A DNA stretch of 64,000 bases. It comes from Eledone cirrhosa. Lineage: Eukaryota. The notes beneath the pieces were generated by a model. It was not told the DNA's origin and ran no database searches. It saw only the letters and a list, made by a program, of their open reading frames with translations. Positions 7,418 through 36,774 of this stretch are shown piece by piece; position 1 is the stretch's first letter, and every line of letters starts with the position of its first letter. A program made the position numbers and the translations under genes. Where the stretch lies: assembly GCA_964016885.1 (NCBI GenBank), contig OZ024740.1, forward strand, positions 348,626,001-348,690,000. Reading direction: 5' to 3'.

Positions 7418-10213
7418 TTACGACTCATAGTCATTGGAATCTCCGTCTGTTATATCATCAACCTTCTTTGCACATGTACAAGCTGTAGCTACATCAGTCA
7501 CATTTGGACTATACACATACAGTCCATCAGTTATATCATCAACCTTCTTTGCACATGTACAAGCTGTAGCTACATCAGTCACATTTGGACTATACACATA
7601 CAGTCCATCAGTTATATCATCAACCTTCTTTGCACATGTACAAGCTGTAGCTACACCAGTCACATTTGGACTATACACATACAGTCCATCAGTTATATCA
7701 TCAACCTTCTTTGCACATGTACAAGCTGTAGCTACATCAGTCACATTTGGACTATACACATACAGTCCATCAGTTATATCATCAACCTTCTTTGCACATG
7801 TACAAGCTGTAGCTACACCAGTCACATTTGGACTATACACATACAGTCCATCAGTTATATCATCAACCTTCTTTGCACATGTACAAGCTGTAGCTACATC
7901 AGTCACATTTGGACTATACACATACAGTCCATCAGTTATATCATCAACCTTCTTTGCACATGTACAAGCTGTAGCTACACCAGTCACATTTGGACTATAC
8001 ACATACAGTCCATCAGTTATATCATCAGCCTTCTTTGCACATGTACAAGCTGTAGCTACACCAGTCACATTTGGACTATACACATACAGTCCATCAGTTA
8101 TATCATCAACCTTCTTTGCACATGTACAAGCTGTAGCTACATCAGTCACATTTGGACTATACACATACAGTCCATCAGTTATATCATCAGCCTTCTTTGC
8201 ACATGTACAAGCTGTAGCTACATCAGTCACATTTGGACTATACACATACAGTCCATCAGTTATATCATCAACCTTCTTTGCACATGTACAAGCTGTAGCT
8301 ACACCAGTCACATTTGGACTATACACATACAGTCCATCAGTTATATCATCAACCTTCTTTGCACATGTACAAGCTGTAGCTACATCAGTCACATTTGGAC
8401 TATACACATACAGTCCATCAGTTATATCATCAACCTTCTTTGCACATGTACAAGCTGTAGCTACATCAGTCACATTTGGACTATACACATACAGTCCATC
8501 AGTTATATCATCAACCTTCTTTGCACATGTACAAGCTGTAGCTACACCAGTCACATTTGGACTATACACATACAGTCCATCAGTTATATCATCAACCTTC
8601 TTTGCACATGTACAAGCTGTAGCTACATCAGTCACATTTGGACTATACACATACAGTCCATCAGTTATATCATCAGCCTTCTTTGCACATGTACAAGCTG
8701 TAGCTACATCAGTCACATTTGGACTATACACATACAGTCCATCAGTTATATCATCAACCTTCTTTGCACATGTACAAGCTGTAGCTACACCAGTCACATT
8801 TGGACTATACACATACAGTCCATCAGTTATATCATCAACCTTCTTTGCACATGTACAAGCTGTAGCTACATCAGTCACATTTGGACTATACACATACAGT
8901 CCATCAGTTATATCATCAGCCTTCTTTGCACATGTACAAGCTGTAGCTACATCAGTCACATTTGGACTATACACATACAGTCCATCAGTTATATCATCAA
9001 CCTTCTTTGCACATGTACAAGCTGTAGCTACACCAGTCACATTTGGACTATACACATACAGTCCATCAGTTATATCATCAGCCTTCTTTGCACATGTACA
9101 AGCTGTAGCTACACCAGTCACATTTGGACTATACACATACAGTCCATCAGTTATATCATCAACCTTCTTTGCACATGTACAAGCTGTAGCTACATCAGTC
9201 ACATTTGGACTATACACATACAGTCCATCAGTTATATCATCAACCTTCTTTGCACATGTACAAGCTGTAGCTACACCAGTCACATTTGGACTATACACAT
9301 ACAGTCCATCAGTTATATCATCAACCTTCTTTGCACATGTACAAGCTGTAGCTACATCAGTCACATTTGGACTATACACATACAGTCCATCAGTTATATC
9401 ATCAACCTTCTTTGCACATGTACAAGCTATAGCTACATCAGTCACATTTGGACTATACACATACAGTCCATCAGTTATATCATCAACCTTCTTTGCACAT
9501 GTACAAGCTGTAGCTACATCAGTCACATTTGGACTATACACATACAGTCCATCAGTTATATCATCAACCTTCTTTGCACATGTACAAGCTGTAGCTACAT
9601 CAGTCACATTTGGACTATACACATACAGTCCATCAGTTATATCATCAACCTTCTTTGCACATGTACAAGCTGTAGCTACATCAGTCACATTTGGACTATA
9701 CACATACAGTCCATCAGTTATATCATCAACCTTCTTTGCACATGTACAAGCTGTAGCTACATCAGTCACATTTGGACTATACACATACAGTCCATCAATA
9801 CATTTATCTGTACGTTTTAGGACTGTCATTTTAGTATCAACTGCAGCACATTGATGATTGTTGTCAGAGCCTATACAGTCTGGACAGCGACACACTACTT
9901 ATGTACGTGATGGCGGGAATAATGTAGAATCATGGGTAATCTTCAGATACCAAGGGCAAGTTGAATGTTCCTGAATTATATCAGTAGATATAATAGATGT
10001 TGGACAAGTTTTATCTCCATCTGTCAATGTTAGTTGTTTGTTTCCTCCTGGGGCCATTTCAGCTGGTAAAAAAAAATTATTGCCAATAGATGCACTGGAG
10101 AGACTCTCGTATTGGACTTTCAAGTCGCTTGGTATTTTACATTGTTTTGTAATTGGTGCAGAGTTGCCAATGAAGATGTAGTTGAAGAGAAGGATGAGAA
10201 TCTGGCTGTGAAT
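7418..10213 (-). pseudogene. IL17: IL-17-like gene copy A, main exon, with an in-frame TAA at 9899-9901 and a 29-fold amplified C-terminal knot strand
   Basis: Acceptor ttctttgccatag precedes 10213. One frame then reads IHSQILILLFNYIFIGNSAP...KTCPT...EHSTCPWYLKITHDSTLFPPSRT*VVCRCPDCIGSDNNHQC...VLKRTDKCID[27 aa]x29-GDSNDYES*. It aligns along its length with the intact paralogue at 54348-54872, which has GAA where this copy has TAA. Confidence 0.88.
7442..9797 (-). repeat. 81-bp coding tandem array, 29 units
   Basis: The period is 81 bp (e.g. tatatcatcaacc at 7451 and 7532). The 825-aa ORF equals 34 + 29x27 + 8 aa. I see only three variant sites (GAT/GGT, GTT/GCT and one ACA/ATA). Confidence 0.97.
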
Positions 10214-10301
10214 CTATGGCAAAGAATATATATTTGTTAAATTGTGTATCATATTTATATAATTTATTGTAATTACAAGTTATAATAACAATTCTAATTC
10301 A

Positions 10302-10392
<91 letters not shown>

Positions 10393-10574
10393 GATACACT
10401 TGGGGAGGGTCATATTGTTGTAATAATATTGCCAGAAATAACAACAGAACACACTCACTGTTTGATTGGTTTTTCACTTCTGTATCTTTTATATCTCCAT
10501 AGTTAATTTATTTGGCAATCGACGTTTATCATTGATTGACCAACGGTTAAAAATACAGATATAAATATATATAT

Positions 10575-10630
10575 ATAGTCTATCAAAGTTCTTTCGTTGC
10601 ATATCTGCAACATCATCAGTGGTACTATTA
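10575..10630 (-). ncRNA. Hammerhead-ribozyme-like core between inverted repeats
   Basis: Minus strand CTGATGA-t-GTTGCA-gata-TGCAAC-GAAA: an intact core with a perfect 6-bp stem II, but weak stems I and III. Flanked by inverted repeats at about 10385-10575 and 10700-10885. Confidence 0.5.
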
Positions 10631-11091
10631 TTATGTTCCCTCCGATTGTATTTTATTGTATTTTATTGTAACTTCTACGCCATCTTTCTGGCGTAGACTA
10701 TATATATATATTTATATCTGTATTTTTAACCGTTCGGTCAATCAATGATAAACGTTGATTGCCATATCAATTAACTATGGAGATATAAAGATACAGAAGC
10801 GAAAACCAACTAAACAGTGAGTGTGTTCTGCTATTATTTCTGGCAATGTTACTACAACAATATGAACCTCCCAAATTATAACAATATTTGTTTCGACACA
10901 CGATTTCATATAAAAAAAACCTTGCAAAAAAAAAAATATATATATATATATATTGGAAAGACCAACGGAAACATTGTTTCCTCGGTCCGATTTGACGAAA
11001 GTCGATCGCTAGAAAAAATATATATATATATATACTATAAATTATGTCCATAGAATCATTTTATAAGAGTAGAAAACAGATTTACAGAGGG

Positions 11092-11164
<73 letters not shown>

Positions 11165-11172
<8 letters not shown>

Positions 11173-11362
11173 CGAAGGAAATGTGGTAAGGAACCAGTTG
11201 GACCATAACGCACCAAAGTACTCAATACTTGGGGTAGTAGAGTGGGTAATAGGAACCAGTAAGACCCCGACGGCTGAGCTCAAGCCCTTTCGACGGCTAA
11301 TTTGAGTCCAGAATTAGCCGTCGAAACGGCTTGAGCTCAGCCGTCGGGGTCTTACTGGTTCC

Positions 11363-11365
<3 letters not shown>
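11165..11365. repeat. Palindromic element embedded in (TA)n, probably a Penelope terminal relic
   Basis: About 11248-11365 is a near-perfect hairpin (ggaaccagtaagaccccgacggctgagctcaagcc...ggcttgagctcagccgtcggggtcttactggttcc). A related copy lies in the opposite orientation at 41250-41410. Confidence 0.7.
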
Positions 11366-11393
<28 letters not shown>

Positions 11394-11733
11394 ATTTACA
11401 TATATATATAAAGTCATAGATATATATATGTTTCACAACCGGTCACGTTGTGGCTCAATGAGAAATTAATAAATTAAATTAAATAATCAGAGCTATATAT
11501 CATAAAATATGTCTTTAGAATCACTAGATATAATATATGCTGTCAAAATGTTAGATAAATAATCTATTGTAGCCACCGCGAAGGGGCTGCTTTCGGTTAT
11601 TTGTCGAAGTTTTCATCATAGGAGCCTTTATTCTTATAGCTTGGTCTAATTGATTTTTTATATGGTTAATTATACTAATTGGGAGAGGAAATGGTATATA
11701 TTATATCTAGTGATTCTAAAGACATATTTTATG

Positions 11734-11820
<87 letters not shown>

Positions 11821-12124
11821 CCCTCTGTAAATCTGTTTTCTACTCACTTACGGTTGAGCAATCAATTTGCTTGCTTTTTCTAGTAGCACTGACCAGCTAA
11901 TAGTCCACGTTTATCTCCCCTTATTGATGACCATAAACTATGTCATATGTTTCCATTTTGGATATCGCACTGAAACCAATCAGTTCACAGAATATTTTCT
12001 TTGTTTCATTGGTGTCTTGAGAAGCCGTTGCCTCTGAGTTTGAGGTGTCCTAAAGTATCCGAGACTGTAGTCGAGACAATTAAGTAAAATTAGGTAATGC
12101 TTTATGTTATTTATTCTTCCCACT

Positions 12125-12167
<43 letters not shown>

Positions 12168-12367
12168 TATGAATAATTCCTAGAGCATACTTTTGCAACG
12201 TGATCGTGATGAAATGATCAAAATTCTCAAATTAATAAAATATGTAGTCATATAAATGTATTCATCAATTAGTTATATCAAATTTCCGGCTGGATAAGGT
12301 TTGTCGATAATTTTGATACAGATTTAAACGAAATCAAACATAAAAATTGTAGATTCAACTAATATAA

Positions 12368-12756
12368 TCTATATATATAAAAGTGTGTATGTCTGTGAGT
12401 TTTAATCCCTAAAACTAGAGAAGTACCCAACCGATTTTTTTCAAACTTTACATGTGTATTACTTATTAGGTGAATCAACTTTTTGATCGCATTAGATGAA
12501 AAACTTCATTTTTCAGCTGTTTAGAGCTTTTTGAGGCGTTACGTCTAACCGATTTCCTGAAATTTCAAGGCATATTATGCACATAAAAAAATTAATTTTC
12601 TTGATCCCTAGGGCCCGCATTAAGTGAAAACCTGCATTTTTCCTGCTTCATCGAGGAAAATCTTAAAGATTATCGAGGAAAGTCTTAAAGATTAGTCTGT
12701 TGGCGGCCCGCGTTCCAAAATAGCTTATCCCGTGCAACGCCGGGTACCACTGCTAG
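12368..12756 (+). mobile_element. Non-autonomous Helitron (389 bp)
   Basis: 5' end A|TCTATATATATAAAA. 3' end has hairpin cccgtgcaacgccggg followed by CTAG|T. No TSD; inserted between A and T. Confidence 0.85.
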
Positions 12757-13068
12757 TATTTTATAAGTTTCCACACTGATCAACAAAGGAAGGTTACACG
12801 TACATGAAATATAGTTGTTGTAAAAGTGTAACCAATATTACGTAAAAATAATGAAAGGCCTACATTTTAAAACAAATATGTACCCAGAAGGAACAAACAA
12901 AATTGCGGAATATGTTATGTCCGCTGATATAACGTATGATGGAATTTTGTATTACTTATCGAAAATGTAAATAAAACCTGTGACATATATATATGTGCTA
13001 TCATGTGCATCAGATGACGTTTTGAATTAACTACAACGGCTAGTGCAAGTCGTGTTTATTTTTAATTT

Positions 13069-13123
13069 ACTCACCATTCACCACTTATGTAGGTGGTATA
13101 TGTAATTGTGGATGTAATTTATA
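13069..13123 (-). promoter_or_regulatory. Candidate TATA box and ATG-only first coding exon for IL-17 copy A
   Basis: Minus strand TATAAA (13123-13118), then ATG (13077-13075) directly followed by donor GTGAGT. A phase-0 splice to 10213 gives the signal-peptide-like MIHSQILILLFNYIFIGNSA-P. Mirrored in the right arm. Not verified by transcripts. Confidence 0.45.
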
Positions 13124-14578
13124 CGTAGGTCTGACAAACTTAATACGTTCACTTCCATATATTTTACTTCTTTGTTTAATACCTTTGTAGATTTCATATC
13201 ATCGACACTTGTATATCCTATAATGATTGATTCTACATTTGACACAAAGCCAGCAATTATTCCAATGCATTACTGGTAATTTATTTTATCGACCCCGTAA
13301 GGATGGAAGGCAAAGTTGACCTCGGCAGGATTTGAACTCAGACCATAAAGGGACGTAACTCTATGTCGGAAAGCATGGCGCTCCACCCTCTACCGATACT
13401 GCTAATCCACCGCCGATTTGAACTCTGACCATAAATAAGGGACAAACAATCCGAAAGGTAGTGTAAATTGAAGTAGAATTATGACCTTGTTATTCAAGGG
13501 GACTCGTTTACACTCAAATTGCCTTCAGGACTCCCAAGTTCGATGGATTTTGTGGCTTTTAAATGAGACCAAGATAGTGAGTAAGAGAGGTTTGCACCTT
13601 TCAAATCTAAAAAGGGAACTGTCGAGCGAGGTGGAATTCCTCACATTTATATTCTTAAAAGTTTGGAGATGGTAGTAGTACCTTGATTAGATACTAAAGT
13701 GTGGGAAGGTGCTTATGTTTATGTATTTTTACACGATTAGGTTTGTTTTAACCCTATTATTTGTAACCCTATTTATATATTTCAATTCAATCACACTTTT
13801 AGTGTTCAACTAAATTAATGGTTTTTTGGCATCTATTAATGAATCATATAGTAAGTATCTTATCAGGATACTTGTATCCTGAATGTGATCATCATACCCT
13901 GAGGTACTGATTATGTCCCAAATATGAATCTGGTGTTGTGTAGTCATTGTATATATCTATATTCGTATATATTTATAATTTATACTCGTTTATTTTTCTG
14001 TCATACACTTCTGTTTTTAAGTGAGAATATCTATATGTACGTGTTTATGCACACTCTTATTAGTGGACATGTATATCTATACATGTATAGTGTCTCACAT
14101 ACGACTTCATATAGAAATTAAATGGTAGCTACACTTTATATATATTAGTATACTTTGGACTTATTAATGAGTGCACCTACGTATTGAATGTGTTGCTTAC
14201 ATTTTTATTGAGGTTATATCATTTCCTGCACCCAATATGTTGTGTTTATGCACATATATGCGCGCATGTACTTATATAATAATTGTTCCAGACTTTCGCG
14301 TTTCTGAGTCTTTTCTCTTAAAGAAATCTTTTAAAATGCTAATTAACATGGTCTATCTCCGTTCACTTTAGTTAGATTTATTCTCATTTTTCTTCGGTTA
14401 TGGCTTCATTAATTATGTTATATTGCTTTTGCTTATGTTGAATTGATAATTTATACATTTTACTTTGTAAATTGTTAATATAACTTACTTCAACGTAAAT
14501 TGTTTGTCCTGTCAGTAAATATGTTCACTAAAATAAAACTTTATTGAACATCTTTCAAATAAAAACAAGCTAAATGTT

Positions 14579-14675
<97 letters not shown>

Positions 14676-14789
14676 ACACACATACACACTTACACACACA
14701 CACGTACTGGAAATATAAATTCTTTCATAATATACAGAAATTTTCCCATCTTACATTACCAGCAATGTAATTTTTTAATACAATATTCT

Positions 14790-15480
14790 GACACCGATAT
14801 AGGCATGAGAGTCCTCAATCACTTGTTCCAGCGAGTCATGTGACAAGCAACACTCTCCAAGTGATCCGGTCGGATCCGGTCGGATCGTTACCAGCAAAGC
14901 TCATGAATGTTATTCAACCATCATGCTCGAGGTCCATCCCTCGGCCTCCTGTCGGCTGGTTTTATCCATAAAATCTGTTCATTGACTCTTTCCAGAGACA
15001 TTCTACCAACATACCCATACTGTTTGTGCTGTGATCTCTCAATTTCGAGAAGTAGCGGCTCTAGCTTGAGAGACTGTACGATCTCCGAGCTACGCACTTT
15101 ATCGAGTAATATTACTCCAAAGACCCTACCATGCAGCCCTCTGCACCAAACCTATAGAGTGCAAGTCGGAGTTCACCTTCTGTTGAGTTAAGTAACAAAT
15201 TCCAACCGACTGATTTTACACCCGTTAGTCATAATACCATTTCCAATCCGTTTGCACATATCAATCCTGTTCATGTAATAAACAGGAGATGTGTGAGTAG
15301 TCCCCTTGGTGGAGTCTGACTGCCACTTTGAATGGTTTCAATTTAACAACATTTATCTGACCACAAATACATGGGCATTCGTATAGACATCAGGGCAGAA
15401 AGAAGCTGATCATCGACCCTATACTTCTACAGAACCTGGAGTCATATGACTATTCAAGGTCAACACAACAAAAATATCCT
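14790..15480 (-). mobile_element. Decayed RTE-like LINE 3' fragment
   Basis: Shares sequence with 47550-48050 (ctgtgat.tctcaatt..g.aagtagcg...atctccgagctacgc) and, inverted, with 29450-29700, which translates to FFDLEKPYDR...GLRQWYVLPHLLFIIYMNRI (RT-like). Confidence 0.6.
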
Positions 15481-15518
15481 CTTTGCACAAAAATCTGTTA
15501 AGAGAGACAGAAAGAGAT

Positions 15519-15597
<79 letters not shown>

Positions 15598-16833
15598 GAG
15601 AGAGAATGTGTGTGTGTGTGTGTGTTAAAGTGGTAAAAACCAAGAAAACCACAGATCACAGAAATAATGATACATGACCAGCGGCAGAATACGTGTGTTG
15701 AAAGAGGTAGAATCCTCTAGCGAAACTATGAAGAGAATGTCAGCGATGATTCAAATTAATTGGAACATTTTTTATATGAGTTCGTATCTGATCCAGCATC
15801 GTTCACACCGCAACGAAACAAACATAATTTTGTAGGTTGTTTGTAAGAACAAAAGAAAATTATAGAGGTTCTATTATCTTTATCGGGATTTGAAAGCAGA
15901 ACCTAAGAGGCCGTAAGTCTGTATCTTGAAGCATGTTTTCCGGCGCTCTACCGGTGCTGCCAATCCACCGATCCATGTTTAAGTTCCATAATACTAAGTA
16001 GAAATGATTGTAAAATGTAATCGTTTCCAGTCTTTTGACTAGAGTTATTCCAAGATCAGAATGCCTCAGCAGTTGAAGGAATTATATCTATGTTATAGTG
16101 TAAATCTTGACTTCTATGATTTGTCATGGATGTACAAATATAGCTAATGAGAAAATTGAACATGAATTGAACAAATAAATGAAAGGAAGATAAAGATTTA
16201 CCATTTACATGCTGGCGTATAAATTACAAACTCATCAGGATAATCCGCACACTTAATTTGATATAATATTGAAAGAGAGTGAAGGAAAGACCAAATAATT
16301 GAGATGGAGAGAGAAAAAAAAAAGTATTGTGCGGGAAAGAGAAAAGAATGTTGAAAAAGAGGGAGAAAGATTAGTGAGAGGGAGGGAGAAGAATTGTTCT
16401 TTTCTTCACTCTCTCTCAATATTATATCTTTTCTCTTTTTCTTCTATGTCTCTCTTTCTCTTTCTATTCTCTTTATCTATTTTTTTTTATCTCTCTCCCT
16501 CTCAATGTTTTGTCTCTCTCCTTTTTACATCTATCTCGTCTCTCTCCCTTTTACATCTATTTTCTTCCAACAGTTTCATTTAAATAAACCGTTGTTTTTT
16601 TCAATTTTTCCGACACCCATTTGCATACTCACTCACAAATTTGTATCACCCTCAAGTATCTCCACTATCCAGCGAATTTCAACCGTTGAGGTTGTCTTTT
16701 TTCCGGGCATGTCAATATTTATTTATAAAACAATCTGTATTTTATCTGATGAAAGCACTAAATTGTTGAGTGCTTTATATCAGTTATAACATTTTTTAAG
16801 CTTGTTGAATCTCAACAAATTAAATATAACCTC

Positions 16834-16923
<90 letters not shown>

Positions 16924-17199
16924 TGTAACCTATACGTACGTTTATATGTATATATGTGTGAGTACGTATATATATATATATATATACGTACTCACACATA
17001 TACATATATGTGTACGTATAGTTTACACCAATAATAATGCTCGATACTTTTGTAAACAAACGGCGCGATTTGAAGCTGTGACAGTGATTGATCGTCAACT
17101 GTTTGTTCAACACTGGCTTTGAGTAGCAATCAATAAGTTTCTGGGTCATTACCCTTCATCAGGAATGTATACCTCAGCCAGTCTGCTGAAAAGTTGATC

Positions 17200-17760
<561 letters not shown>

Positions 17761-17889
17761 AGTACCAAAATCATGTTAGGGATGTCATGTCAGAATATCA
17801 GAATCATGCGCCATATATAACCTAGGTTATATAAGTTGATGACACAACTGTATAGGCATTCATAGCTCTAATCTAGTTATATAGCTCTA

Positions 17890-18660
17890 ATCTAGTTAAA
17901 TCTAATTCGTATATTATACAAATTAACCAAGCATATATAAATGAAACAATAATAATCACGAAGCTTCAATTCATTAATAAATTATTTAATTGATATATTT
18001 TTCATTCATTTACAAAAGCAGTCAGCATTTTATTCCCTTGTAGGCAAATCATCAGAATCACTAGATAATATAAAAACGATATATATTCACCGAGACCACC
18101 CTGGAGTTAATGTTGGTAGAGGCTGTGTTTTCTGACCAGCAGGACGTGTCATTTCCGTAAAAGTTAGAAGGGTGTTAGAAGTGTATGCGCTCTAATCCGT
18201 TAAGTTGTCTTGGCTGGATGTCACGAAGGACAGGTGGTATTATTCAACCGAAGCATTGTAGGCGTTTGCCCTCTCTAACCGACCTTTAAGGGACCCAAGG
18301 GCCTCTATCCATTTCTGGATTTGGTTTGCTAACTTTTCTGAGTCGTCTTCTCAGTTCATCTCTACCTAAAGATCAGGTCCAAAACAGACCACAAGCACTC
18401 TGAACGGACTGTCATTTCAGCGGAGGAGATCTCCGCTCTTCGCGTTGTGTCAGGCATTTAGTTAAGAGAAAGTAATAATTCATTTTCAAAAACGAAGATG
18501 AACATATTTGTATTTCCTAGTACATTTTATTGTGTATTGCATGCGAAAATCACCAGTACAAAATTCAAGTTACAAGACAACAAATCAATCGTATCCCAGA
18601 TACATTAGTTGTTACATAATATGATTACAATCAGGAAGTTGAGAAACAAAAAAAGAAATG
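17890..18660. repeat. Locally duplicated module Y (unidentified, possibly a coding relic)
   Basis: Reverse-complement match to about 39960-40790. The central part is GC-richer and more diverged than the flanks. Confidence 0.8.
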
Positions 18661-20688
18661 GAGATTTTTTTCAATAGTAAACATAGTTTGACAGCTTAAC
18701 ATAACTGGTCTCCACTTTAAAGATAGCAATTTAGTAATTGTTGCCGGAAAGAGAATGAAAAAAATCAGTGGCTGTCTTGCTACGCTTGAAGCCTATATGG
18801 TCCAGCTTTCCCTTAATCGAAGTGCCAACAGCAACATACACTTCAGTGACATGTAAAACGATCATCCCTACATCATGAATGACGATGACATATAAGGACC
18901 CGGCTGAGTAATCCGCAGGCTACTATAAGTGTACGACGGCAGATGACTATAGGACACATGGAACGCATGGCCGAGAGGTGAACAATGAGTGCTTCTCTCG
19001 AATGGCACCATAGGATCCAGGTTAGACATATCAAGAATTGGATGATTTCTGTAGAGAAAGACACAACAGATATACACCGGTCTCGAGAGCAGGCCGTGCC
19101 ACCCGGAAATCCCATTGGCACTTCATTCCTTAAATTTTTCCCCAGATCAGGAAAACTTAAACAGAAAATAACAAAGAAAAATGTTTAGTTCTAATATATT
19201 TATTTCATTAAAAAACAATTTTTGATATAATTTCAATTATTACATAGTACAGATTAATAATTACATATTGATTATCTTAATATGAAGAATTAAATACGTA
19301 AGGATTACGGTACAGATTATATATAAAATATATATAAATGATATTCTAAGAGATATTGGATATCGAAAAAAAGATATACAACTATTGTGAATGAGGTTAA
19401 TTTATAAATAAAAGGAATTTTAATGTATCATTGAATTGAATCTAATATAAGTATATATGTGTATATATGTGTTTGTATCAGTGTATACCACTGTATATAA
19501 ATGAATGTATGAATGAATATTTTATATGTGCATATATATATTTATACATATGTATATGTATATATATATATATATATAAAAATTATGAAATCGAAAATGC
19601 AACTGGAGTCTTATCTTTAAAAAGATATATATATTTATTTGGTTCCTTTACCGGTTTCGCAGTTTTTCTGCTTTTCAAAAGTAGAGTTGAGATGGAGGGT
19701 CTGTGGTTTTTCTCACATCTGGTTGGTCTTTGAATGTTACTTGTTTTATATGGAAAAAAGTGGCTCGAAATGCCAGGTTTTTAGAGAAGTAATTTGATTG
19801 GTTGGTCAATAAGTATAATAAATTTCGCACCAGTTCGCGTTACAAAGTTCTTCAAACAATGGGGGGTGGGGGGTGCTCAGGTTGTTTTTTTCATATATGA
19901 GTGTTTGAAGGACTTTTTACTTAAAAAAAGGGGCTCACGAAGGCTTTTTTTTAAAAATGTAATCTGATTGTTTATAAATGAAATTATTGCTATCACGTGA
20001 ACAATTTCATTAAATTTCGCGCCCGTATTTCGGAATTTGTTTTGTAGCCTTTTAGAGAATTTTATGACAATAAAAAAAGTGGCTCACGAAGGCTTTTTTT
20101 TAAAAATGTAATTTGATTGGTTATAAATGAAATTATGGTTGTCACGTGAATAAGTTCATTAAAATTTCACGACCGTATTTGTGAATTTATTTTGTAGCCT
20201 TTTACAGAATTTTATGACAATAAAAAAGTGGCTCCGAAGGCTTTTTTTTTAAAATGCAATTTGATTGGTTATAAATTAAATTATGACTGTCACGTGAACA
20301 AGTTTCGCGGCCCGTATTATTTATTTTGTAGCCATTTAGAGAATTTTATGACAAGCAAAAGAATGGTCAAGAGAAATGGGATGGGACATGTGTTCTGGTT
20401 CAGTGAATATGGCTAGTTCGCTGGGGTGTCAGAGTTCAGATTTTCTATTGAAATAAAGAAAGTAGACATATGGATATTTATTATGTAGATGCGTGTTATG
20501 TGTGTGTGTGTGTGGGAGTATGTTAAGATGGAGAGAATATATATATTTTGTGAGTGTGTGTAGGAAAGTGATTCTATTAGTAGAAATGAGGGAGGGAGTT
20601 GTGTGTGGGGGGTGTTATGTGTGTGTGTATGGGTTTTATGTGTGTGTGGGAGCATGGTTAGCATGTTAAGATGAAGAGAATATATATT

Positions 20689-20723
<35 letters not shown>

Positions 20724-22637
20724 AGGAAAATGATTCCGTTAGTAGTAATATTTTTGAATGAACATATTTTCCTTACTTATTCATATTTGTTCTGTTGTAT
20801 TGTCAGCGCAAACGTATGTTAAGGTTTATTTAGTTCGGGTTTTTATTTTCTAAAGTAGAAGGTGTTATGTGTTTTTTTCATGTGACCTATAGTCATCTGC
20901 CGTCGTACACTTATAGTTACCTGAGGATTACTCAGCCGGGCCCTTACATGTCATCTTCATTCATGATGTAGTGATGATCGTTTTACATGTCACTGAAGTG
21001 TATGTTGCCGTTGGCACTTCGGTTAAGGAGGAAAGCTGGACCATATAGGCTTCAAGCTTAGCAAGACAGCCACTGATTTGCTCATTCTCTTTTCAACAAT
21101 TACTAAGTTGCTATCTTTAAAGTGGAGACCAGTTATGTTAAGCTGTCAAAGGTCTGGACAAATATCTAGAATCAAACCACGCCCCACAAATCTTCCTTGT
21201 TTACAATTTAACTTTCTATATGTAAAGAGAAACCTAAATTTTTCACCAGTGAATGATTCGCACCGGCACAGACCGTATTGTACTTTATTTAATCTAATTC
21301 CACGGCGTTTATTCCCTGTATAATGGGACCCCCATCCAAATAAGTGCTTCTACCCTAGTGCATTACTGGTACTTGATTTTATCAACCCCATATGGATGAA
21401 AGGCAAAGTTAACCCTGGCGGGATTTGAACTCAGAACGTAAAGAGTCATAACTCTATGCTGCAAAGCATGGTGACTGAGGCTCTACCGATACTGCCAATC
21501 CACCCCCATCTAAATAACGAAGCTAAAATGAAATATGAACAAGTAATAAGCAGACATAATTAAAACAGTCCAGTTCATCACTTTCAAAGAATTGCAAAGC
21601 CCTACAGATTTTTGGAATAGAGAAAATATTAGCGACTTAAGGATTTACAACAGCCTCTTCTCTACATGAGCAATATATAGTGGATCACTTACATATAAAA
21701 GTGAAAGATCTTTCGTGATGTTAGAACGATACGAACTCGTAACGACACTTTTGAGTTAGCGCTTAATAATTTACTACTTAAGACGATAGTTGTATTTGGG
21801 GTTATTGTTTTCGGTGTAAGTACATTATTTGTGTCTGGTGTGTGTAAGTGTGTTTCAGCGATGGCGTTATCTCGTTTTTTTTTGTTTTTTTTTTTTTATT
21901 TTGGAGGTCAAGACTAGGTAGATGTATTTATGCTTTCAATTTACGAGGCCAAGTCTGAATGCAGTGACTATCGTGGTACAAATCTGCTTGAATCTCTAGG
22001 AAGTGTCTTATCTGAAGTGCTGAATCGTCTGATAAAATGGATCTACCCTGGCACCATCCCTGAGACCCATTTGGGAATCGAGCTGGGAGGGATAGCAATC
22101 AATATGTATGTATACATGTATGTATGTATGTCGGGTCACTCTTGAGTGCTAATGGTAACATGTCACATGGCCGGCTTGTCGCCGACAAAACCGGCAACCC
22201 CACCAGGTTTACTTAGTGAGGAGGGTGATTTTGGACACCCTGCAGGACAAAAGACAAAAGCCGAAGAACGCATGAGTCAACGGCCATCCAAAAATGTGTA
22301 AATATGTAAATACACATGTACATATATATGTATATGTATATGCATGTGTGCATGTGTATGTATGTGCGCGGTGACATAGAAATAGTTGGGCTGGATACCC
22401 GATCGCGTGGTTAAACCACTGGGAGTGAAGGACCCCTAATCTTTATCAGGCAACTTAGGAAACTGGGATAACTCCGTCATAAAACATGCGGCTCATTAGT
22501 TACTGATGATGTTGATCTTTTCTTCTTTTCGAGTTACTGTCACTCAGAGTGTGGGGTTGGCTCGGTACATAGTCTTTCCTCACTTAAAAAAAAATGTTCA
22601 CGCACAGGCATTGTATGATAGAATTAATTAATACTTA

Positions 22638-25600
22638 TTAATAATGGTATGTCGGGCAATGGCCATACTCGATAAGTAGTGCTATGCCTCCCATTGGAGC
22701 CGGAGAGTCTTTGATGTCTCTCAGAGTTCTATCGAGCGCCTCAAGAGCACCTCTGTGGGCCATCGTGCATTCGTCCCAAACGATAAGCTTGCATCGTCTG
22801 AACACTTCTGCCTGATCGGAGCTCTTACTGATGTTGCAAGTGGGTGTCTCAGTCTTCGCTAAGTCAAGCGGGAGCTTGAAATAGGAGTGAGCTGTCCTGC
22901 CGCCCGGCAACAAAGTAGCCGCAATTCCAGATGATGCCACAGCTAAGGCAATGCCTTCTGTTCGCCTAATCTCAGCTAATATGAATTTGGTGACAAAAGT
23001 TTTCCCAGTCCCCCCAGGAGCGTCCAGGAAATAAATCCCCCCAGCTTTGCCCCGGACAGAATTAACAACGGAGTTGTAAGCGAGTTTCTGTTCTGGAAGG
23101 AGCTTTGACTCATTCTCCGCTATGTACTGGGTAAGCTCGTCAACATTATAAGATGTCTCACGCAGCAAATCCGAAGACAGAGTGTTTGCGCCTTCCCGGT
23201 TTGTTGAAGGTAGGCCATACACAGCTAACGCACTACCGCCCATATCGAGAACAGTATCTTCGATTTCAAGCAGCGGCCTGTTGTAAATGAGGTCACTGTA
23301 CCCGACCAATGGGTTTAGCAACTGAGCGTGACGCAGGAAATCTTCAGACATGTAATCTTTGTAGCTAAGCCATAAAGAGGCCGGATCACCCAAGTCACAC
23401 CATAGGAGTAGAATAGCGAAAAGCGAGCTTAGTCTTTTAGGAGATTTCAACAAAACGCCCTCTGCCATAGTGGCGCCCCATTGTGAATCATCCTCCAAAA
23501 GGCCACGTCTAAAGCAGGCTTCCCGGAAAGTATCACATAATTCACCATCAACAGTTCTTATGTCTCGAAAGCTTTGTGGGCCAAAAACCTCATGGAGAAG
23601 AAGGCGTAGGTGAAAACACTCATGCTGGTTGGGAGGTACAGTGTACACTCTTCCTAGACAACTGTCAAACTTGACACCAGGATGTCCTTCAACATCCTGA
23701 CCTGACTTCCTACGCACCCAAGTGTTATTTGACCACACGTAGTAGGACGGGAGCTGAGGATATGAAAGTGTTTTTGCAAATGTGTCAAGTTGGCAAAGCG
23801 TAAAAAAACCAGTCAAAGTTGTTTCTTTTGGATTGGCCGCCAAATGAGCAGCAGTCTGTTCAGTAAAGTAAGCCCGCTGGCCGTTTTCCAAATGAACCGC
23901 TAGTTGTATGATGGCGGGGTGCCTTTGGTGAAGTGGAAACCCGAATATCCGCCAAAAAGCTTCACCATTGCTGATATATCGACCTGCCAAGTACTCCGAG
24001 ACCTCGTCCCTGCTATTGTCGTTTTGAAGGCCGAACATGGCAGCGTCGGAACCCTTGTTAACATATTTACATATGTACTTTATCGACTTCACTGAATGAC
24101 AGAACTCCACATTTATATGAGCGTTGAAAGTTTTCATCAGAAATGAACAGTACGGGACCACCCACCTATTATCAACTTGATGACCCCATAACGTCATAGT
24201 GAATCCACCGTTCTCAGGCCGTCTTCGACTGTACAGTGGGTATCCGTCGCCGCCGGTCTGGGTCTCCTCAACAAACCTCTTTGGGTATCGTTTAGTGCAC
24301 ACATGGTCCTTGTGGCATGAGGGAACTCTTGAAAACCGGGACCGCACTGACCGTGCACCATGTGTGCCTTCACAATATCGTACAGCTGCCGGTCAACAAC
24401 GGGGTCCGGTATTTCCGCTGCGATGACATCATCTAGAACTGTAGGGTCTATTTTGGTGACCAACCAAACGAAAATGTGCGCGTGTGGCAACCCTCTCTTC
24501 TGCCACTCAACAGTATACATGTGACACCTAACAGGCCCGAAAACCTTCCCTTTTTTATTAGATCAATTAGCTTAGCCAGCTTCTGCCTGAAAACCCTGGC
24601 AATAATATCATGCCTATGGCAGTACCTCTGCCCTGGGATAAGTTCCCGCGTAACCTCAACCCACTTGGGGTTACACGTAAAAGTGATGAATAAATCGGGG
24701 CGCCCATAATGCTGAACGAACGTCATAGCGTCCTGTGTTCGCTCGTGCATGTACCCCCCCCCCCCCCGTATAGGTTGAGGGGAGGATGCACATTTTGCCG
24801 ATGTTCCGGGGGTCAGTGTCATTCTTATGCCGTCACGCAAATGGATGTAGGAGTCTGAGCGCAGCTGCTTCTGATTCAGTTCCCGTGACCTGTGCAGGGT
24901 GCTGAAATCGTTAGGTCTCGTCATGAAGCGGTATGAGTATAAAGCCATGCATGAAACAGTTTTAGATGTTGCAGCAGTGGGCTCATTTGGTTTGCGCTGA
25001 GGAATGCCGAAATGGTACCCGTCTTCTCCGTATGCAAAGAGAAGGGGATACTGCAGGACGTCGTATGAACGATGCGTCTCATTAATACGTCGAAGACCAC
25101 TGTCACGACTTTGAATAACTATGTCTCGCTTATTGTGCTGTTCACCATGGATAACTACGGCCACTTCATTGCACGAAGGAGCGTTATAACGGCGTGCGTG
25201 CTCCCCAGAAGGTCTTTTGTCAGCATCGATGACAATGGTGAAGTTTGGTGAAGGATGTGTTTCCAATGCGTATTTGAAACTGCGAATATAACTGTTGTGC
25301 TCATGAAGCATGTTTCGAAGACCGAGCAGCACGACCCTTTCAAAAGTGTCAGCGTCACTGTTTGCATGTGTTGGAATAACGCCGAACCGCGCATCAACTT
25401 GCCTACTGTAGTTAGAAATGAAGTAAATTTGAAGGAACGAAGGCTTGCAATTTTGTAGTGGCTGGAGCGACCCAATATGATGGTACACCTGCCCCTGGAC
25501 CTTGAAAGTAGGCATCCAACTACTTTCTCTGACAACATTAGCCTCGAAAGAAGTCATTTGAAACGCACAATTGTACTTCCTGATGAGTTGAAGGAATTTG

Positions 25601-27416
25601 GATGACCTTGAGGTAGAACCAGTAAGTAGTTCCTTCAAAGGCTCTGGTGGTTCCCAAAGAGGGGGCAAGTTGACCTTACCGTTTAAGCAGCACTTGCAGG
25701 TGGCTCCCCAGCCCACTTTTTAGCATTGCAGAATTTGCAATTGAAGCGCATTTCCCCTATATTTATGTCGGCTCGCATCGAGTAGTTAACGTTGGGCTAA
25801 TACTTGAAAGCCCGTAGGTGCCAGTATGGGCTGTCTGGGCTCGTCACACCGCGGGAAGCTTCTTGTCGTCGACTGTTCCGCTCCAACGTAGAATGTTGCT
25901 CCTGTGGGTCGTGGGAAGCTCTCGCAGCAGTAGCAGAAGCCACCTTTGCAATCCTAGTGGAGCGCCCGTTTGCATCTTCAGAAGCCATGGAATCAGTCAT
26001 AGACGCAGCGTTCCTAGCAAGGCGATTCGTCCGCCGTTCCAAACTTTCCAAAGCCCTGGAAGCAGCAGTAGCCGCAGCTTTTCTATTCAGTCGAGCCGCC
26101 CTTTGTTCCGGGCCCTCTGAAGCCCTGGAAGCAGCAGTAGCAGCAGCATTTCTATTCAGGCGAGTCGACCTTTGTTCCGGGCCCTCTGAAGCCCTGGAAG
26201 TAGCAGTAGAAGCGTTTTTGGGGGAATGACGTATCGCCCGCTCTGAATCGCACATCGCAGCACGTCTCGAGGCGTCGTATGAAGCCATCTTGGCTAGGCG
26301 TGCGGTGCGTTGTTGAAAACTTTCAGCAGCTCTGCATTCCGCTGAACGTAAGGCGTTCTGTGAAAGTTTTAAAGCAGTTTCCTCGGGGAGCTCGTTTTCT
26401 GTAATCGCCCTCTGCGCCGCCGCTGACGCAGTATGGCGACCGAGGCGACTTCTCTTTTTAGGTGGCATTTTATGGGAAAAAGAAAGGGTGAAAGTTACTT
26501 CTACAGCAAAATTGCCTTTGAAAGTATAAGGCTGAAAACTGTCTGTGTTCCGCAGGGGAAAAATGGGAGAACGAACGGCAAATAAATAACTCACAGTTTG
26601 TTGAAAGCGCGCTTCTGTCAGCAATTTGAAGTTGTTTTGTCAAAAATCCCTATTTGTTTTTATTTTCACTCAATAAACGTGTAAATATGTTATAGACAAA
26701 ATGTAATTGTGTGTGAGCATGTATTTTATTTTTTTTTATTTTTATGTTGAGTAGCGAGAGGAAATTATTTCCGTAATTGTGGGTGATTTTGAAATAAATA
26801 AATAGTCATTGACCTAAGTTAGACCATTTACAACATTCTTACAGAGGCAAATAAATAACTCACAGTTTGTTTAAAGCGCACTTCTGTCAGCCATGTGAAG
26901 TTGTTTGGCCAAAAATTCCTATGTGGTTTTTTTTTCACTCAATAAATGTGTGAATATTTTATACACAAAATTTAATTGTGTGAAATTATTAAGGAGTGGG
27001 TTTATAAACGTATATAAGAGATGTAAGCGTCATGTATTTAACGTTTGTCTTTGTCTCTCTGGTTAACTCCTTTATTTTTTTCTCTCTCTCTAAAGGAAAT
27101 TATTAAGGAGTGGGTTTGTAAGCGTATATAAGAGAAGGTTGCAGTATGTATGGGAGGTAGGTAGAGTTACTCAGATTCTATTAGGGGTGTGTGTGTGTGT
27201 GGGGGGGGGGGGGGGTAAAGCGTCATGTATTTAGTTTTATCGATTATTTCCATAATTGTGGGTGAGGTTGAAAGAAAGAAATAATCGGTGACCTAAGTTA
27301 GACCATATACAACATTCTTACAGACTTTGAGCCGAATCGGTTTGAAATTGTGCAAATGTATAAACATGGAACATGTGCACACACACACAACAACAATAAC
27401 AATCTGCTTTTATAGA
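22638..27416 (-). mobile_element. Decayed autonomous Helitron (RepHel), 3'-truncated
   Basis: The start MPPKKRSRLGR is at 26468, followed by Arg/Ala-rich repeats. Rep motifs DLFITFTCNPKW, VEWQKRGLPHAHI (HUH) and KYICKYVNKG are present, as are Pif1 Walker A FLDAPGGTGKTF and Walker B IVWDECTM. The ORF is split by stops and frameshifts and ends at about 22670 before the later helicase motifs. Candidate 5' end A|TCTATAAAAG at 27416. Confidence 0.93.
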
Positions 27417-29348
27417 TAATGATTAAGAATAGAAAATAGCTACATTTATTCATATGAGATGATATCTTTAACGTAAGTATACTTACTCCACCTATCTTCA
27501 TTATAAAGTTTGTTAATTCTAAAATGTCACAGAATAATGTAAGCATTGCAGTTGGTACGTTTTCAACTAAGACCTTACCGTGATCTGTTCTACTTTATAT
27601 GAAATCAGTTGCTTTGTCTATAGGTACATATAATCTTTGGCACAGTTTATTGCAAAATCCATATGAAATAACTGCAATAAAATGTCTGATTTAAAGATCA
27701 AAATGAAAAGGGGTCGATAAAATAAAATACCAGTAATACACTGGAATATTTGCTGGCTTTGTGCCAAAAGTAGAAACAATTATGACGGAACCTTTTATTT
27801 CCGGTGACATACTGTACCCGGACATAATGTACTGCTTATCTAACACGTAACAAATTCCTGTGACCTATATATTTACTATCATGTAGATGATAGGATGTTT
27901 TAAAATAACAACCACATATATTCCAAGATGTATTTGTTGCTTATTTACCTGCTTTCCTCAAATTATGTGTGCGGAATATCCCGATGAGTTTGTAATTTAG
28001 ACGAAAGCATGAAAAAGATAAAACTTTATCTTACTTAACTTTCATTTATTTGTTCAATACATGTTCAATATTCTCATTAGAGTCAAGATTTCTTTTGAAT
28101 TAAAAGCTCTCATTACCATAGCATAGATAAGTTTCCCTTTAATGCAGACGCATTCTGATGTTGGAATAACTCTTGTCAAAAGACTGGAAACGATTACATT
28201 TTGCAAACATTTCTAATTAGCATTATGGAACATAAAGAGCGGTGGATTGGCAGTATCGGTAGAGAGTCGGACGCCATGCTTTCCAGCATAGTTACGTCCC
28301 TTTACGGACTGAGTTCAAATCCCGCTGAGGTTAACTTTGCCTTTCCTACTTTCGGGGTCGATAAAATAAAGTACCAGTAATGTACTGGGTAATTGCTGGC
28401 CTTGTGCCAAAAGTAGAAGCAATTAAGGAACATAAATGTAGATCGGTGGATTGACAGTAGCGGTAGAGCGCTGGAAAACATGGTGCAAGGTATAGAGTTA
28501 CGGCCTCGTACGTTCTGCTTCCAAGTCCCGCCAAGGTTAGGTTTGCATTTCCTCTTTACGGGGTCGGTAAAATAAAGTACCCATAACGCACAGTTAATCG
28601 TCATTTCACTCACCCAAATTGTTGGCCTTGAGCCTATATCAGAAGCGATTACGAAACATAGATATGTCAAATGAAGTTGACCATACGAAGTATACAGAAT
28701 AAATTAAATCTCTTTATATCTGCTGTGCTACTTATAATTCTTTCATAAACATTTACCAAATATTCATTACCAGGAGATTTGTTTCGTCCATAAAAACTAG
28801 TTAACTATAACTGGAGGAAACACAACTAGCGTGTAACAGTCAATTGTATTATGTAAAGATTATAATCATTCATAGTTATAATTGTTTCTACTTTTGGTAC
28901 AAGGCCAGCAATTATTCCAGTGTATTACTGGTAATTTATGTTATCGACGCCGTAAGGATGAAAGGCAAAGAAAGTTAACGTCGACGAGATTTGAACTCAG
29001 ACCGTAAATGGACGTAACTATGCATGTCGTCCAACCCTCTACCGATACTGCCAATTCACCGCCATTCATAGTTATAATAATATTAAATACATATATTTGT
29101 GAAGTATTTCTCAACGTTAGAAAAACGTTATTACTCAGAAATCTCAAGATAATAGAACCCCTATACCGTACTATAATTTTTCTTTGTGGTGTGAACAATG
29201 CTGGATCAGATACGAACACATTCTCTTGATTGTTTCCCTAGAGGATTCTACCTCTTTCAACACACGTATTCTGTGTCTCATCAGGTATCAATATTTCTCT
29301 GATTTATGGTTTTCTTGGTTTTCACCACTTAAACACACACACACTTTA

Positions 29349-29448
<100 letters not shown>

Positions 29449-29839
29449 TATGTTTGTGCAAAGAGGTATACTTTTCTTTTTTTGACCTTGAAAAGCCATA
29501 CGACCGCAGGCTCTACAGGAGTATAGGGTCGAAGATCAGCTTCTTGTTTCCCTGTTGTCTATACGAATACCCATGTATTTGTGTTCGGATAAATGTTGTT
29601 AAATTGAAACCATTCAATGTGGGATTCGGACTCCGTCAATGGTACGTACTGCCACATCTCCTGTTTATTATTTACATGAACAGGATTGATATTTGTTTAA
29701 GATTATTGTATCCAAAAATATTACATTGCGTATAATGTAAAATAGGAGAATTTCTGTAGATTAGGAATGAATCTATATTTCCAGTATGTGTGTGTGAGTG
29801 TATATGTGTGTGCGTGCGTGTGTGCGTGCGTGCGTGCGT

Positions 29840-29942
<103 letters not shown>

Positions 29943-31351
29943 TGTGTGTCAATAATTATTTATTCTAGTGAACATATTTACTGACAGGACAAACAATTTA
30001 CTCACATTGAAGTAATTTATATTAGCAATTTACAAAGTAAAATGTATAAATTATCAATTCAGCGTTAGCAAAAGCAATATAACATCACTAATCCAGCCGT
30101 AACCGAAGCAAAACGAGAATAAATCTAACTAAAGTCACCGGAGATGGACCATGTCAATTAGCTTTTTAAAAGATTTCTTTAAGAGAAAAGACTCAGAAAC
30201 GCGAAAGTCTGGAACAATTATTATATAAGTACATGCGCGCATATATGTGCATAAACACAACATATTGGGTGCAGGAAATGATATAACCTCAATAGGAATG
30301 TAAGCATCACATGCAATACGTAGGTGCACTCATTAATAAGTCCAAAGTATACTAATATATATAAAGTGTTCATATATGAGTAGTTACCCTTTTATTTTTA
30401 TATGAAGTCGTATATACATGCCCACTAATGAGAGTGTACATATAGATAGTCTCACTTAAAAACAGAAGTGTATGATAGAAAAGTAAACGAGTATAAATTA
30501 TAAATATATACGAATATAGATATATACAATGATTACACAACACCAGATTCATATTTGGGACATAATCAGTACCTCAGGGTATGATGATCACATTCAGGAT
30601 ACAAGTATCCTGATAAGATACTTACTATATGATTCATTAATAGATGCCAAAAACCATTAATTTAGTTGAACACTAAAAGTGTGATTGAATTGAAATATAT
30701 AAATAGGGTTACAAATAATAGGGTTAAAACAAACCTAATCGTGTAAAAATACATAAACATAAGCACCTTCCCACACTTTAGTATCTAATCAAGGTACTAC
30801 TACCATCTCCAAACTTTTAAGAATATAAATGTGAGGAATTCCACCTCGCTCGACAGTTCCCTTTTTAGATTTGAAAGGTGCAAACCTCTCTTACTCACTA
30901 TCTTGGTCTCATTTAAAAGCCACAAAATCCATCGAACTTGGGAGTCCTGAAGGCAATTTGAGTGTAAACGAGTCCCCTTGAATAACAAGGTCATAATTCT
31001 ACTTCAATTTACACTACCTTTCGGATTGTTTGTCCCTTATTTATGGTCAGAGTTCAAATCGGCGGTGGATTAGCAGTATCGGTAGAGGGTGGAGCGCCAT
31101 GCTTTCCGACATAGAGTTACGTCTCTTTATGGTCTGAGTTCAAATCCTGCCGAGGTCAACTTTGCCTTTCATCCTTACGGGGGTCGATAAAATAAATTAC
31201 CAGTAATGCACTGGAATAATTGCTGGCCTTGTGCCAAATGTAGAATCAATTATCATTGATATACAAATGTAGATGATATGAAATCTCCAAAGGTATTAAA
31301 CAAAGAAGTAAAATATATGGAAGTGAACGTATTAAGTTTGGCAGACCTACG

Positions 31352-31430
31352 TATAAATTACATCCACAATTACATAGACCACCTACATAAGTTGTGAATA
31401 TACCACATACATAAGTTGTGAATGGTGGGT
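31352..31430 (+). promoter_or_regulatory. Candidate TATA box and ATG-only first coding exon for IL-17 copy B
   Basis: TATAAA at 31352-31357, ATG at 31422-31424, then GTGGGT, a weaker donor than in copy A. A short tandem duplication lies between the TATA box and the ATG. Confidence 0.4.
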
Positions 31431-31827
31431 AAATAAAAAATAAACACGACTTGCTCTACCTGTTGTACATGATATATATATGTCACATTTTTTATTTACA
31501 TTTTCGATTAGTAATACGTTATATCACCGGACATAAAATATTCCGCATTTTTGTTTTCTTTGTTTTGTTTTCTTTGTTTTGTGCCTCTCCTTTGTTCTGT
31601 CCTACGCCATCTTGTTTTTGTATGTGTTGTGTGCTTAGTTTGCGCATGTGTTACATCCGGGTGTCTGTGTGCGTTTTTATTTGTTTATTTATTTGTTTAT
31701 TTACATGTTACTGGTTGATTGTTTGTTCTATGTGTGTGTATGTGTTTTCATTTTGTCCTTAATTGTAAGTTGTGATGTTGCTATTCCATTCATGTTTTCT
31801 ATTTAATTTTGGTTGGAGTTCATTTGT

Positions 31828-32629
31828 TTATCGCCTCTGTGATTTGTCTAAATATAGCGTCTTTTCTGTGTGTAGATTTTTATTTCTGTTCTCTAATTTG
31901 CCCTTATGTTCTATTTTAGCATGTTGGTGGAGTACAGATGATTCTTTTCTATCTTGAAGCTCTCGCCAGTGTTCATTTAACCGTTCTCCTATACTACGAA
32001 CTGTCTCACCTATGTACACTATATTCTTATTTTTACATTGTCCTTCAGTACATCTTATGCTATATACTACATTTCTAGTTTTACAGTTAATATGGGGGCT
32101 TAGTTTACAGATTATGCATTTCTTATCTATACAGGGAGGTCTTTGAAAAGTGTATGTATTACTAATAAGTGTTTTTATGGAGGTACCTGGTCTTTCTACT
32201 ATCTTAATATTAAGTTTAAGTTTATCTAGGGCCCTTCTAAATTTGTAAGCTAATTCACCTCTAGGGGTTGTATTGATGAACATTACACTCTGGTATTTAT
32301 TGCTATCATACCATGAGTTTATTCTATTAACCTTATTGCTAGTTCTTTCTATTCTATTCCAAAATTTGCTCGTATACAAGGGGCAGGTCCCATTTGTATC
32401 ATTATTTACCATATTTTCGGTGGATTAGATATTTGGAAGTCATGGGTTTGGCATAATGGGAATGGAGGATTTGTTTTTTGTTATTAATGGTTTCTATCCA
32501 GAGCTCTGTGTCTAGTACAGATAATCGATGGTTGGGGTGTTTGCTTGGGTAGTCTGTAGTAACTCTAATACTCTGGTGGATGAAGTTAGCTATTTGCTGG
32601 ATGCTTTCCATGGTGTTTTTATGATTCAA
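31828..32629 (-). mobile_element. Penelope-like element 3' fragment (RT thumb plus GIY-YIG endonuclease)
   Basis: LSVLDTELW...HYAKPM, then CKTRNVVYSIRC...IVYIGETVRSIGERLNEH...SSVLHQH. Frameshift near 32405. Absent from the left arm. Confidence 0.85.
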
Positions 32630-35949: not shown

Positions 35950-36774
35950 ATTCACAGCCAGATTCTCATCCTTCTCTTCAACTACATCTTCATTGGCAAC
36001 CCTGCACCAATTACAAAACAATGTAAAATACCAAGCGACTTGAAAGTCCAATACGAGAGTCTCTCCAGTGCAGCTATTGGCAATAATTTTTTTTTACCAG
36101 CTGAAATGGCCCCATGAGGAAACAAACAGCTAACATTGACAGATGGAGATAAAACTTGGCCAACATCTATTATATCTACTGATATAATTCAGGAACGTTC
36201 AACTGTGACTGGTGTAGCTACAGCTTGTACATGTGCAAAGAAGGTTGATGATATAACTGATGGACTGTATGTGTATAGTCCAAATGTGACTGATGTAGCT
36301 ACAGCTTGTACATGTGCAAAGAAGGTTGATGATATAACTGATGGACTGTATGTGTATAGTCCAAATGTGACTGGTGTAGCTACAGCTTGTACATGTGCAA
36401 AGAAGGTTGATGATATAACTGATGGACTGTATGTGTATAGTCCAAATGTGACTGGTGTAGCTACAGCTTGTACATGTGCAAAGAAGGTTGATGATATAAC
36501 TGATGGACTGTATGTGTATAGTCCAAATGTGACTGGTGTAGCTACAGCTTGTACATGTGCAAAGAAGGTTGATGATATAACTGATGGACTGTATGTGTAT
36601 AGTCCAAATGTGACTGGTGTAGCTACAGCTTGTACATGTGCAAAGAAGATTGATGATATAACTGACGGACTGTATGTGTATAGTCCAAATGTGACTGGTG
36701 TAGCTACAGCTTGTACATGTGCAAAGAAGATTGATGATATAACTGACGGAGATTCCAATGACTATGAGTCGTAA
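35950..36774 (+). pseudogene. IL17: IL-17-like gene copy B, main exon: TGA at 36115-36117, in-frame deletion of the knot core, about 6.7 C-terminal repeats
   Basis: Acceptor ttctttgccatag ends at 35949 and the exon is nearly identical to copy A. GGA>TGA at codon 56 and KTCP>KTWP. ERST is joined directly to VTGVATACTC, a loss of at least 189 bp (63 codons) relative to copy A. Ends GDSNDYES*. Confidence 0.88.
36205..36750 (+). repeat. 81-bp coding tandem array, 6 full units plus 1 partial
   Basis: The 212-aa ORF equals 23 + 19 + 6x27 + 8 aa. Same unit as the 7442-9797 array; the last two units have KKIDD. Confidence 0.95.

Follow-up and report, generated by a model that had tools for sequence, protein, structure and literature searches.

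Does the 826-residue open frame on the minus strand of this 64,000-nucleotide stretch of Eledone cirrhosa DNA (the window) encode an IL-17 cytokine with a greatly extended tail, or is it what is left of a dead gene? The frame runs from stop to stop between positions 7418 and 9898 and is occupied for most of its length by an 81-bp minisatellite (7442-9797, minus strand; 29.1 copies of period 81 with 98% matches in Tandem Repeats Finder), in which the last IL-17 strand and the tail behind it are repeated in frame. The native C-terminus GDSNDYES and its stop codon (7418-7441, minus strand) follow the array, so that the translation ends in DSNDYES, and an AATAAA signal lies beyond them at 7331-7326. 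The first-pass annotation had recognized the unit as IL-17 coding sequence and had described the frame and the native C-terminus as kept. The former is borne out by a Pfam match, by alignment and by a structural model, and the latter by the open 7418-9898 frame.

The unit has the consensus GLYVYSPNVT(D/G)VATACTCAKK(V/A)DDITD and exhibits only three variable sites. Gly replaces Asp in 10 of the 29 units, Ala replaces Val in 5 of 29, and a single unit carries a Thr to Ile change; the earlier consensus captured the D/G and V/A alternatives and overlooked the Ile-containing unit. All four internal variants of the array alter a residue, one of them the conserved Thr, and the order of unit variants along the array is irregular. 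From unit 1 onward the tail comprises 791 aa with 58 Cys residues and 29 NVT sequons, which agrees with the ~780 aa, 58 Cys and one NVT per unit that had been claimed. Within the genome the 81-bp repeat is confined to this copy, referred to as copy A, and to a second one, copy B (36.2-36.75 kb). Three of the six reading frames of the unit are open, only 9 of 243 point changes create a stop codon, and four random changes would spare the unit's open frame 86% of the time. Thus, with a unit length that is a multiple of three, half of the frames open and few variants, the open frame of the array is no sign of selection.

Alignment of the DNA upstream of the paralogues was used to find the first exon that they share, which consists of a TATA-like box, an ATG with about four further codons and a GTAAGT donor. 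A profile of this exon matches 27578-27452 with an E-value of 1.4e-7, in phase with the acceptor of copy A. The corresponding family-type first exon (27487-27602, minus strand) has a TATA-like box at 27602, an ATG at 27501, the five codons MKIGG and a GTAAGT donor in phase 0. From strand, position and frame, rather than from a joining read, we infer that it belongs to copy A. The putative intron (10214-27486, minus strand) would span 17.3 kb and holds the remains of a Helitron (22638-26639, minus strand), frameshifted and comprising PIF1, Helitron_like_N and STPRs/STPR repeats. Exon 2 opens with a head of 104 codons (9902-10213, minus strand) that covers the remainder of a signal-like stretch and the N-terminal half of IL-17. 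By inspection only, a hydrophobic stretch follows MKIGG, and in the paralogue alignment copy A carries His where the RSTCPW motif has a nearly invariant Arg.

The head is terminated by a premature TAA (9899-9901, minus strand) at a conserved Glu site, upstream of all four knot cysteines. Glu occupies this site in 31/31 intact paralogues, and among 36 outside homologues pattern matching recovered Glu from 26 and Asp from 2, and failed to match in the other 8. Behind the stop lies the rest of a single IL-17 domain (CRCPDC ... DKC; 9798-9898, minus strand) with its cysteines intact and an in-frame ATG at 9829. Four conserved cysteines form the basis of the IL-17 knot, according to an excerpt of PMC4517768. 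The invariant cysteines C89, C94, C137 and C139 are all present in the DNA of copy A, and all of them are located behind the stop. The model built from the native exons ends after residue 109. Since the TAA precedes the knot cysteines, the encoded product would be devoid of a knot and the array would fall into the 3' UTR; the upstream stop, noted in the first-pass annotation, is therefore not incidental. As a functional IL-17, then, copy A fails twice, as its frame is not open to the knot and its product is without the knot cysteines, and the repeat lies outside the translated frame of the native model, where a coding variable-number tandem repeat (VNTR) would lie within it. What copy A does combine is a disabling lesion with a kept intron structure among intact paralogues, as expected of a duplicated pseudogene.

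Two checks that the first-pass annotation proposed, a Pfam search of the translation bridged across the stop by X and a model of the head with three units, both returned an IL-17 domain. The PF06083 search yielded one match (residues 84-159, E-value 5e-11, 43.2 bits compared with a cut-off of 24) that ends in unit 1, and PF06083 found no match in the 104 codons before the stop. Among the 47 PF06083 matches in the genome, copy A is the sole one with a stop inside the match. Urea-transporter and other Pfam matches on the repeat, none with a stretch that passed, were taken to be artefacts of repetition. In the AlphaFold model the head and unit 1 are folded (pLDDT 68-95 by blocks as far as residue 140); the last long strand (residues 123-141) is contributed by unit 1. 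The extra units of the read-through model have pLDDT values mostly of 38-49, obtained for a monomer with no alignment depth in that region. The top PDB matches of the X-bridged model are IL-17A/F chains, with E-values of about 5e-5 to 2e-4. At the level of a predicted model, this cystine-knot fold match shows ancestry and not a real product. Judged by its sequence, copy A is a descendant of IL-17. Apart from the stop it is well preserved, as the first exon, the splice sites, all cysteines and the AATAAA are retained.

Pairwise dN/dS values between copy A and eight intact paralogues are 0.28-0.40 (dS 0.44-0.74), within or below the range of 0.30-0.79 among those eight. Such values indicate that the lineage of copy A experienced prolonged purifying selection and was functional for most of its history, and that the loss is recent. 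The recent changes in copy A comprise an Ala to Ser replacement in addition to the Arg to His replacement at the nearly invariant site.

Copy B offers a second view of the same event. Its exon 2 (35950-36774, plus strand) is an inverted duplicate of exon 2 of copy A and contains 6.8 units; including short flanks, the duplication extends over 35776-36918 and is 96-97% alike to copy A. Copy B is disabled by a TGA at codon 56, a Cys to Trp replacement and an in-frame core deletion that starts after 36204 (equivalent to position 9958 of copy A) and reaches into the array. The TGA is not in copy A, and the stop site of copy A is deleted from copy B; for this reason the array and the stop cannot be ordered in time. 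The D and G unit types are common to both arrays, which implies that the array is older than the duplication or that it was converted. Over 81 codons the two copies differ by 3 residue changes, 1 silent change and 1 nonsense change, and among the recent changes two silent ones separate copy A from copy B. The changes since their split, like the array variants, do not suffice to test for selection. The deletion and the inversion of copy B indicate that the region is unstable. Additional inverted duplicated blocks are located between the two copies (12895-16261 versus 27958-31556, 77-87% alike) and suggest an older inversion.

Short reads were consulted on the length of the array. The unit assembles into a contig of 111 letters with a depth of 260, 141 and 178 in runs X1, X2 and X3, and a contig common to copies A and B has a depth of 15.8, 8.1 and 10 in the same runs, so that the unit contig is 33-36 times as deep as half of the shared one. 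The assembly predicts a ratio between 26 (exact words) and ~36 (all units), a rough comparison as contig depth is not copy number. The sample of runs X1-X3 may be the source of the assembly itself. A head-to-tail loop contig of the unit was found in 4/4 runs examined (X1-X4), with a depth of 54 in X4. Depth in the short reads agrees with an array close to the assembled size and speaks against an inflated one. The units are 98% alike and no record listed spans the array, as might be the case if the 29 copies were an artefact of assembly; given the depth ratio in three runs, the irregular order of unit variants and the loop contig, the probability of such an artefact is close to negligible.

Run X4, which was obtained from sample S2 (88 million letters, run type unrecorded; S2 may be the same animal), provides transcript-like evidence. 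One X4 contig (457 letters, depth 4.1) covers 9882-10217 and departs from the genome at the acceptor of copy A, unlike the X1-X3 contigs, which continue past the acceptor into the intron. Its loose end maps to 52163-52192, adjoining a GT donor, and the 30-letter word of this end has a single occurrence in the genome. The contig has one mismatch, which falls on the junction, where a GT..AG splice would place it. Compared with the exon alone, the contig shows 0 other letters across 9882-10213, and so the TAA is read in X4, at a distance of 17 letters from the contig end, which is under the 31-letter bridging rule; contigs carry no information on strand or level. We infer from these features that X4 is RNA. 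The X4 contigs listed skip 9781-9881 and the 3' junction of the array, and these gaps are uninformative. Three RAD-seq runs of other samples contributed 1-2 reads each, which leave the stop site uncovered.

The junction defines a candidate alternative first exon derived from a repeat (52159-52282, minus strand), which a predicted GT..AG splice over 41.9 kb would connect to the acceptor of copy A; its 5' limit is set by the extent of the X4 contig only. The exon lies within a dispersed repeat (52100-52261; 831 candidates in the genome) and contains only an out-of-frame five-codon uORF and no in-frame start for copy A. A dispersed repeat with a usable GT donor likely acts as first exon, and the X4 transcript of copy A is likely low and non-coding.

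Of the 47 PF06083 matches, 45 fall within the interval 348.60-349.39 Mb of C1, and the window lies near one end of this cluster. Forty stretches were taken from part of the cluster; once broken copies had been set aside, along with those lacking an in-frame acceptor, 31 intact exon-2 frames remained. Within the window, the intact paralogue C has its exon 2 at 54351-54872 (minus strand) and a candidate first exon near 61025-61200. The first-pass annotation had chosen this 54.3-kb paralogue as the counterpart of the unit; it is intact, but it is among the most distant copies, as copy A is 57.5% identical to it versus 75-79% to copies further along the chromosome.

Several other features of the cluster were observed. 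A third broken IL-17 copy, D (41569-41930, minus strand), has its 5' part replaced by simple repeats and a frameshift after the EVVC motif, and further copies broken by frameshifts or stops, missed by the PF06083 search, are found at L012:4799-5265, L026:3919-4110 and L027:8135-8613. Seven near-identical IL-17 genes at C1:348855178-348912926, spaced by ~9.55 kb, represent a very recent tandem burst. A tandem array with a period of ~422 bp (L014:7900-10000 and L015:1-6700), which switches orientation near L015:4300, is located upstream of an intact IL-17, and a first-exon match is present at L015:9485-9359. A subfamily of ~15 IL-17 copies in alternating orientation (C1:349244000-349395000, L040-L047) has kept open frames although several of its cysteines are gone (CRGDNVEF, TSCVY), among them one from the terminal CxC; it is possibly more interesting than the array finding itself. 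The window also contains a GIY-YIG fragment (31828-32424, minus strand; Penelope-like, below cut-off) and a LINE-like reverse-transcriptase fragment (48234-49996, plus strand).

The first-pass annotation had envisaged a translated product acting as a multivalent scaffold, decoy or disulfide polymer. This proposal finds no support, as the TAA, which is also read in S2, halts translation ahead of both knot and array, the only spliced-looking form is without an in-frame start, and the open frame needs no selection. Alternatively, the assembled allele may be a null, and stop-free alleles or a recent ancestor would make a secreted IL-17 with a functional tail rich in Cys and sequons. A single lesion blocks the frame of copy A, whose first exon and splice sites show no damage, the array would predate the split of copies A and B with the stop of B being its own, and the array is also present in X4, where it is 13 times as deep as the head contig. 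This alternative is nevertheless unlikely: the TAA recurs in sample S2, the candidates of three protein searches include no such protein (weak blanks), the extra units appear unstructured in the read-through model, and the ancestor may already have carried the stop, since copy B has lost the site. Slightly more doubtful still is the fuller version, in which the array was born in an intact gene and some animals still secrete an IL-17 whose last knot strand is present in 28 spare copies, every one with its own free CxC and site for an N-glycan; this protein would cross-link or trap the other IL-17s of the cluster, with the stops of copies A and B as independent shut-offs. Were a stop-free allele real, it would represent a new cytokine architecture, relevant to cystine-knot folding and to invertebrate IL-17 control.

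Two further possibilities concern the RNA. The locus may act as RNA if the 52.2-kb transcript contains copy B antisense in its intron together with copy A sense, forming a duplex of ~1 kb that would be a source of small RNAs or a substrate for editing and would thereby tune the IL-17 cluster. The arms are 96-97% alike, inverted and inside the putative 41.9-kb transcript, but they are ~25 kb apart, the contig depth is 4.1, the X4 contig shows no edits and DNA similarity of the intact paralogues is only 73-83%, all of which renders such a role very improbable. An even smaller chance is attached to bypass of the stop, for which two A-to-I edits would have to turn UAA into a Trp codon, or ribosomes would have to read through it or initiate anew at the ATG at 9829. 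A UAA with a single A-to-I edit remains a stop, and UAA-G is a tight termination context. Furthermore, the X4 contig has no changed letter over 9882-10213 (contigs drop rare variants), six ATGs lie upstream of 9829 in the spliced form, and copy B is unable to pair with the stop region, having deleted it. On the other side, an 803-aa frame exists, which re-initiation at 9829 would turn into a repeat protein without a signal peptide, and coleoids recode heavily by A-to-I editing, as stated in an excerpt of PMC8382921.

Copy A is very probably a recently dead duplicated IL-17 gene that carries a neutral, coding-derived 29-copy minisatellite. This conservative reading, which the first-pass annotation had also entertained, is favoured by the TAA, the lesions of the sister copy and an open frame that needs no selection, and it is supported by the other broken IL-17 copies nearby (copy D and those in L012, L026 and L027). 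Counting against a dead gene, the array of copy A and the deletion of copy B are both frame-keeping, each with a chance of ~1 in 3. The first 81-bp duplication may have occurred between two near-matching words that flank the last strand. The array end words, ATTGATGGA and, in copy B, ACTGACGGA, share 7/9 letters and are 81 bp apart; a weaker word match with the same spacing is found in the six paralogues examined. Misalignment at these words would give two in-frame units, and unequal exchange or slippage would expand them. A local inverted duplication would have generated copies A and B, each of which decayed separately. An mRNA from the native first exon would encode a knotless stub of 109 aa and carry the array in its 3' UTR, and the observed transcript likely starts in the transposon-derived exon and is likely non-coding. 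Read as a pseudogene, the locus provides a snapshot of the birth and death of a cytokine cluster in a cephalopod, comprising the conversion of a coding strand into a minisatellite, inverted duplication, separate decay and the likely acquisition of an exon from a transposon. Annotators are also cautioned against taking this 826-aa open frame for a gene, and the array provides a marker that likely varies in length.

Coding VNTRs, such as mucin repeats, are in-frame, homogeneous units of variable number with glycosylation sites, located in translated frames. The array of copy A resembles those of the mucin type in its in-frame, homogeneous unit with glycosylation sites; in contrast, it lies behind a nonsense codon and is derived from a strand of a folded domain. 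The best outside homologues of copy A are octopod IL-17-like proteins (O. bimaculoides, O. sinensis and A. fangsiao), with 50-74% identity for 35/36, so that homology points to an octopod host. The octopod cluster has the same cysteine pattern and the same tandem arrangement on one chromosome, and copy A departs from its homologues in the stop and the 29-fold last strand. All 36 homologues are single-domain, with query coverage of at most 68%; none of them reaches over the repeats or carries a second ACxC-type motif. A quick protein tree of the homologues contains no one-to-one orthologue of copy A, which it groups with this genome's own copies at an SH-aLRT of only 83. A repeat-tailed protein was not found among 656 longer IL-17 candidates of 318-2000 aa, nor was a relative of the 826-aa frame among 8000 scored candidates of 454-1446 aa; both are weak negatives. 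An IL-17 with a repeated last strand is not described in the open literature searched. The earlier remark that no such IL-17 architecture is known therefore stands, as neither the 36 homologues nor the wider protein searches, weak blanks as they are, contain one.

Tandem expansion of IL-17 has been described in O. bimaculoides (PMC8353272, in excerpt). In S. purpuratus, 5/35 IL17 sequences are pseudogenes or truncated in the assembly, and the portion of PMC5457136 that reports this makes no mention of an internal minisatellite in them. The sea urchin pseudogenes, like copy A, sit in an expanded invertebrate cluster, and copy A differs from what that portion describes in having such a minisatellite. 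Repetition is reported for two S. purpuratus gene models excerpted from PMC4517768, SPU_019350.1 with three IL-17 domains and SPU_022838.1 with two. These models and copy A both repeat IL-17 sequence within one predicted protein. As far as that excerpt describes them, the sea urchin models repeat whole domains two to three times, whereas copy A repeats one strand and its tail 29 times, behind a stop.
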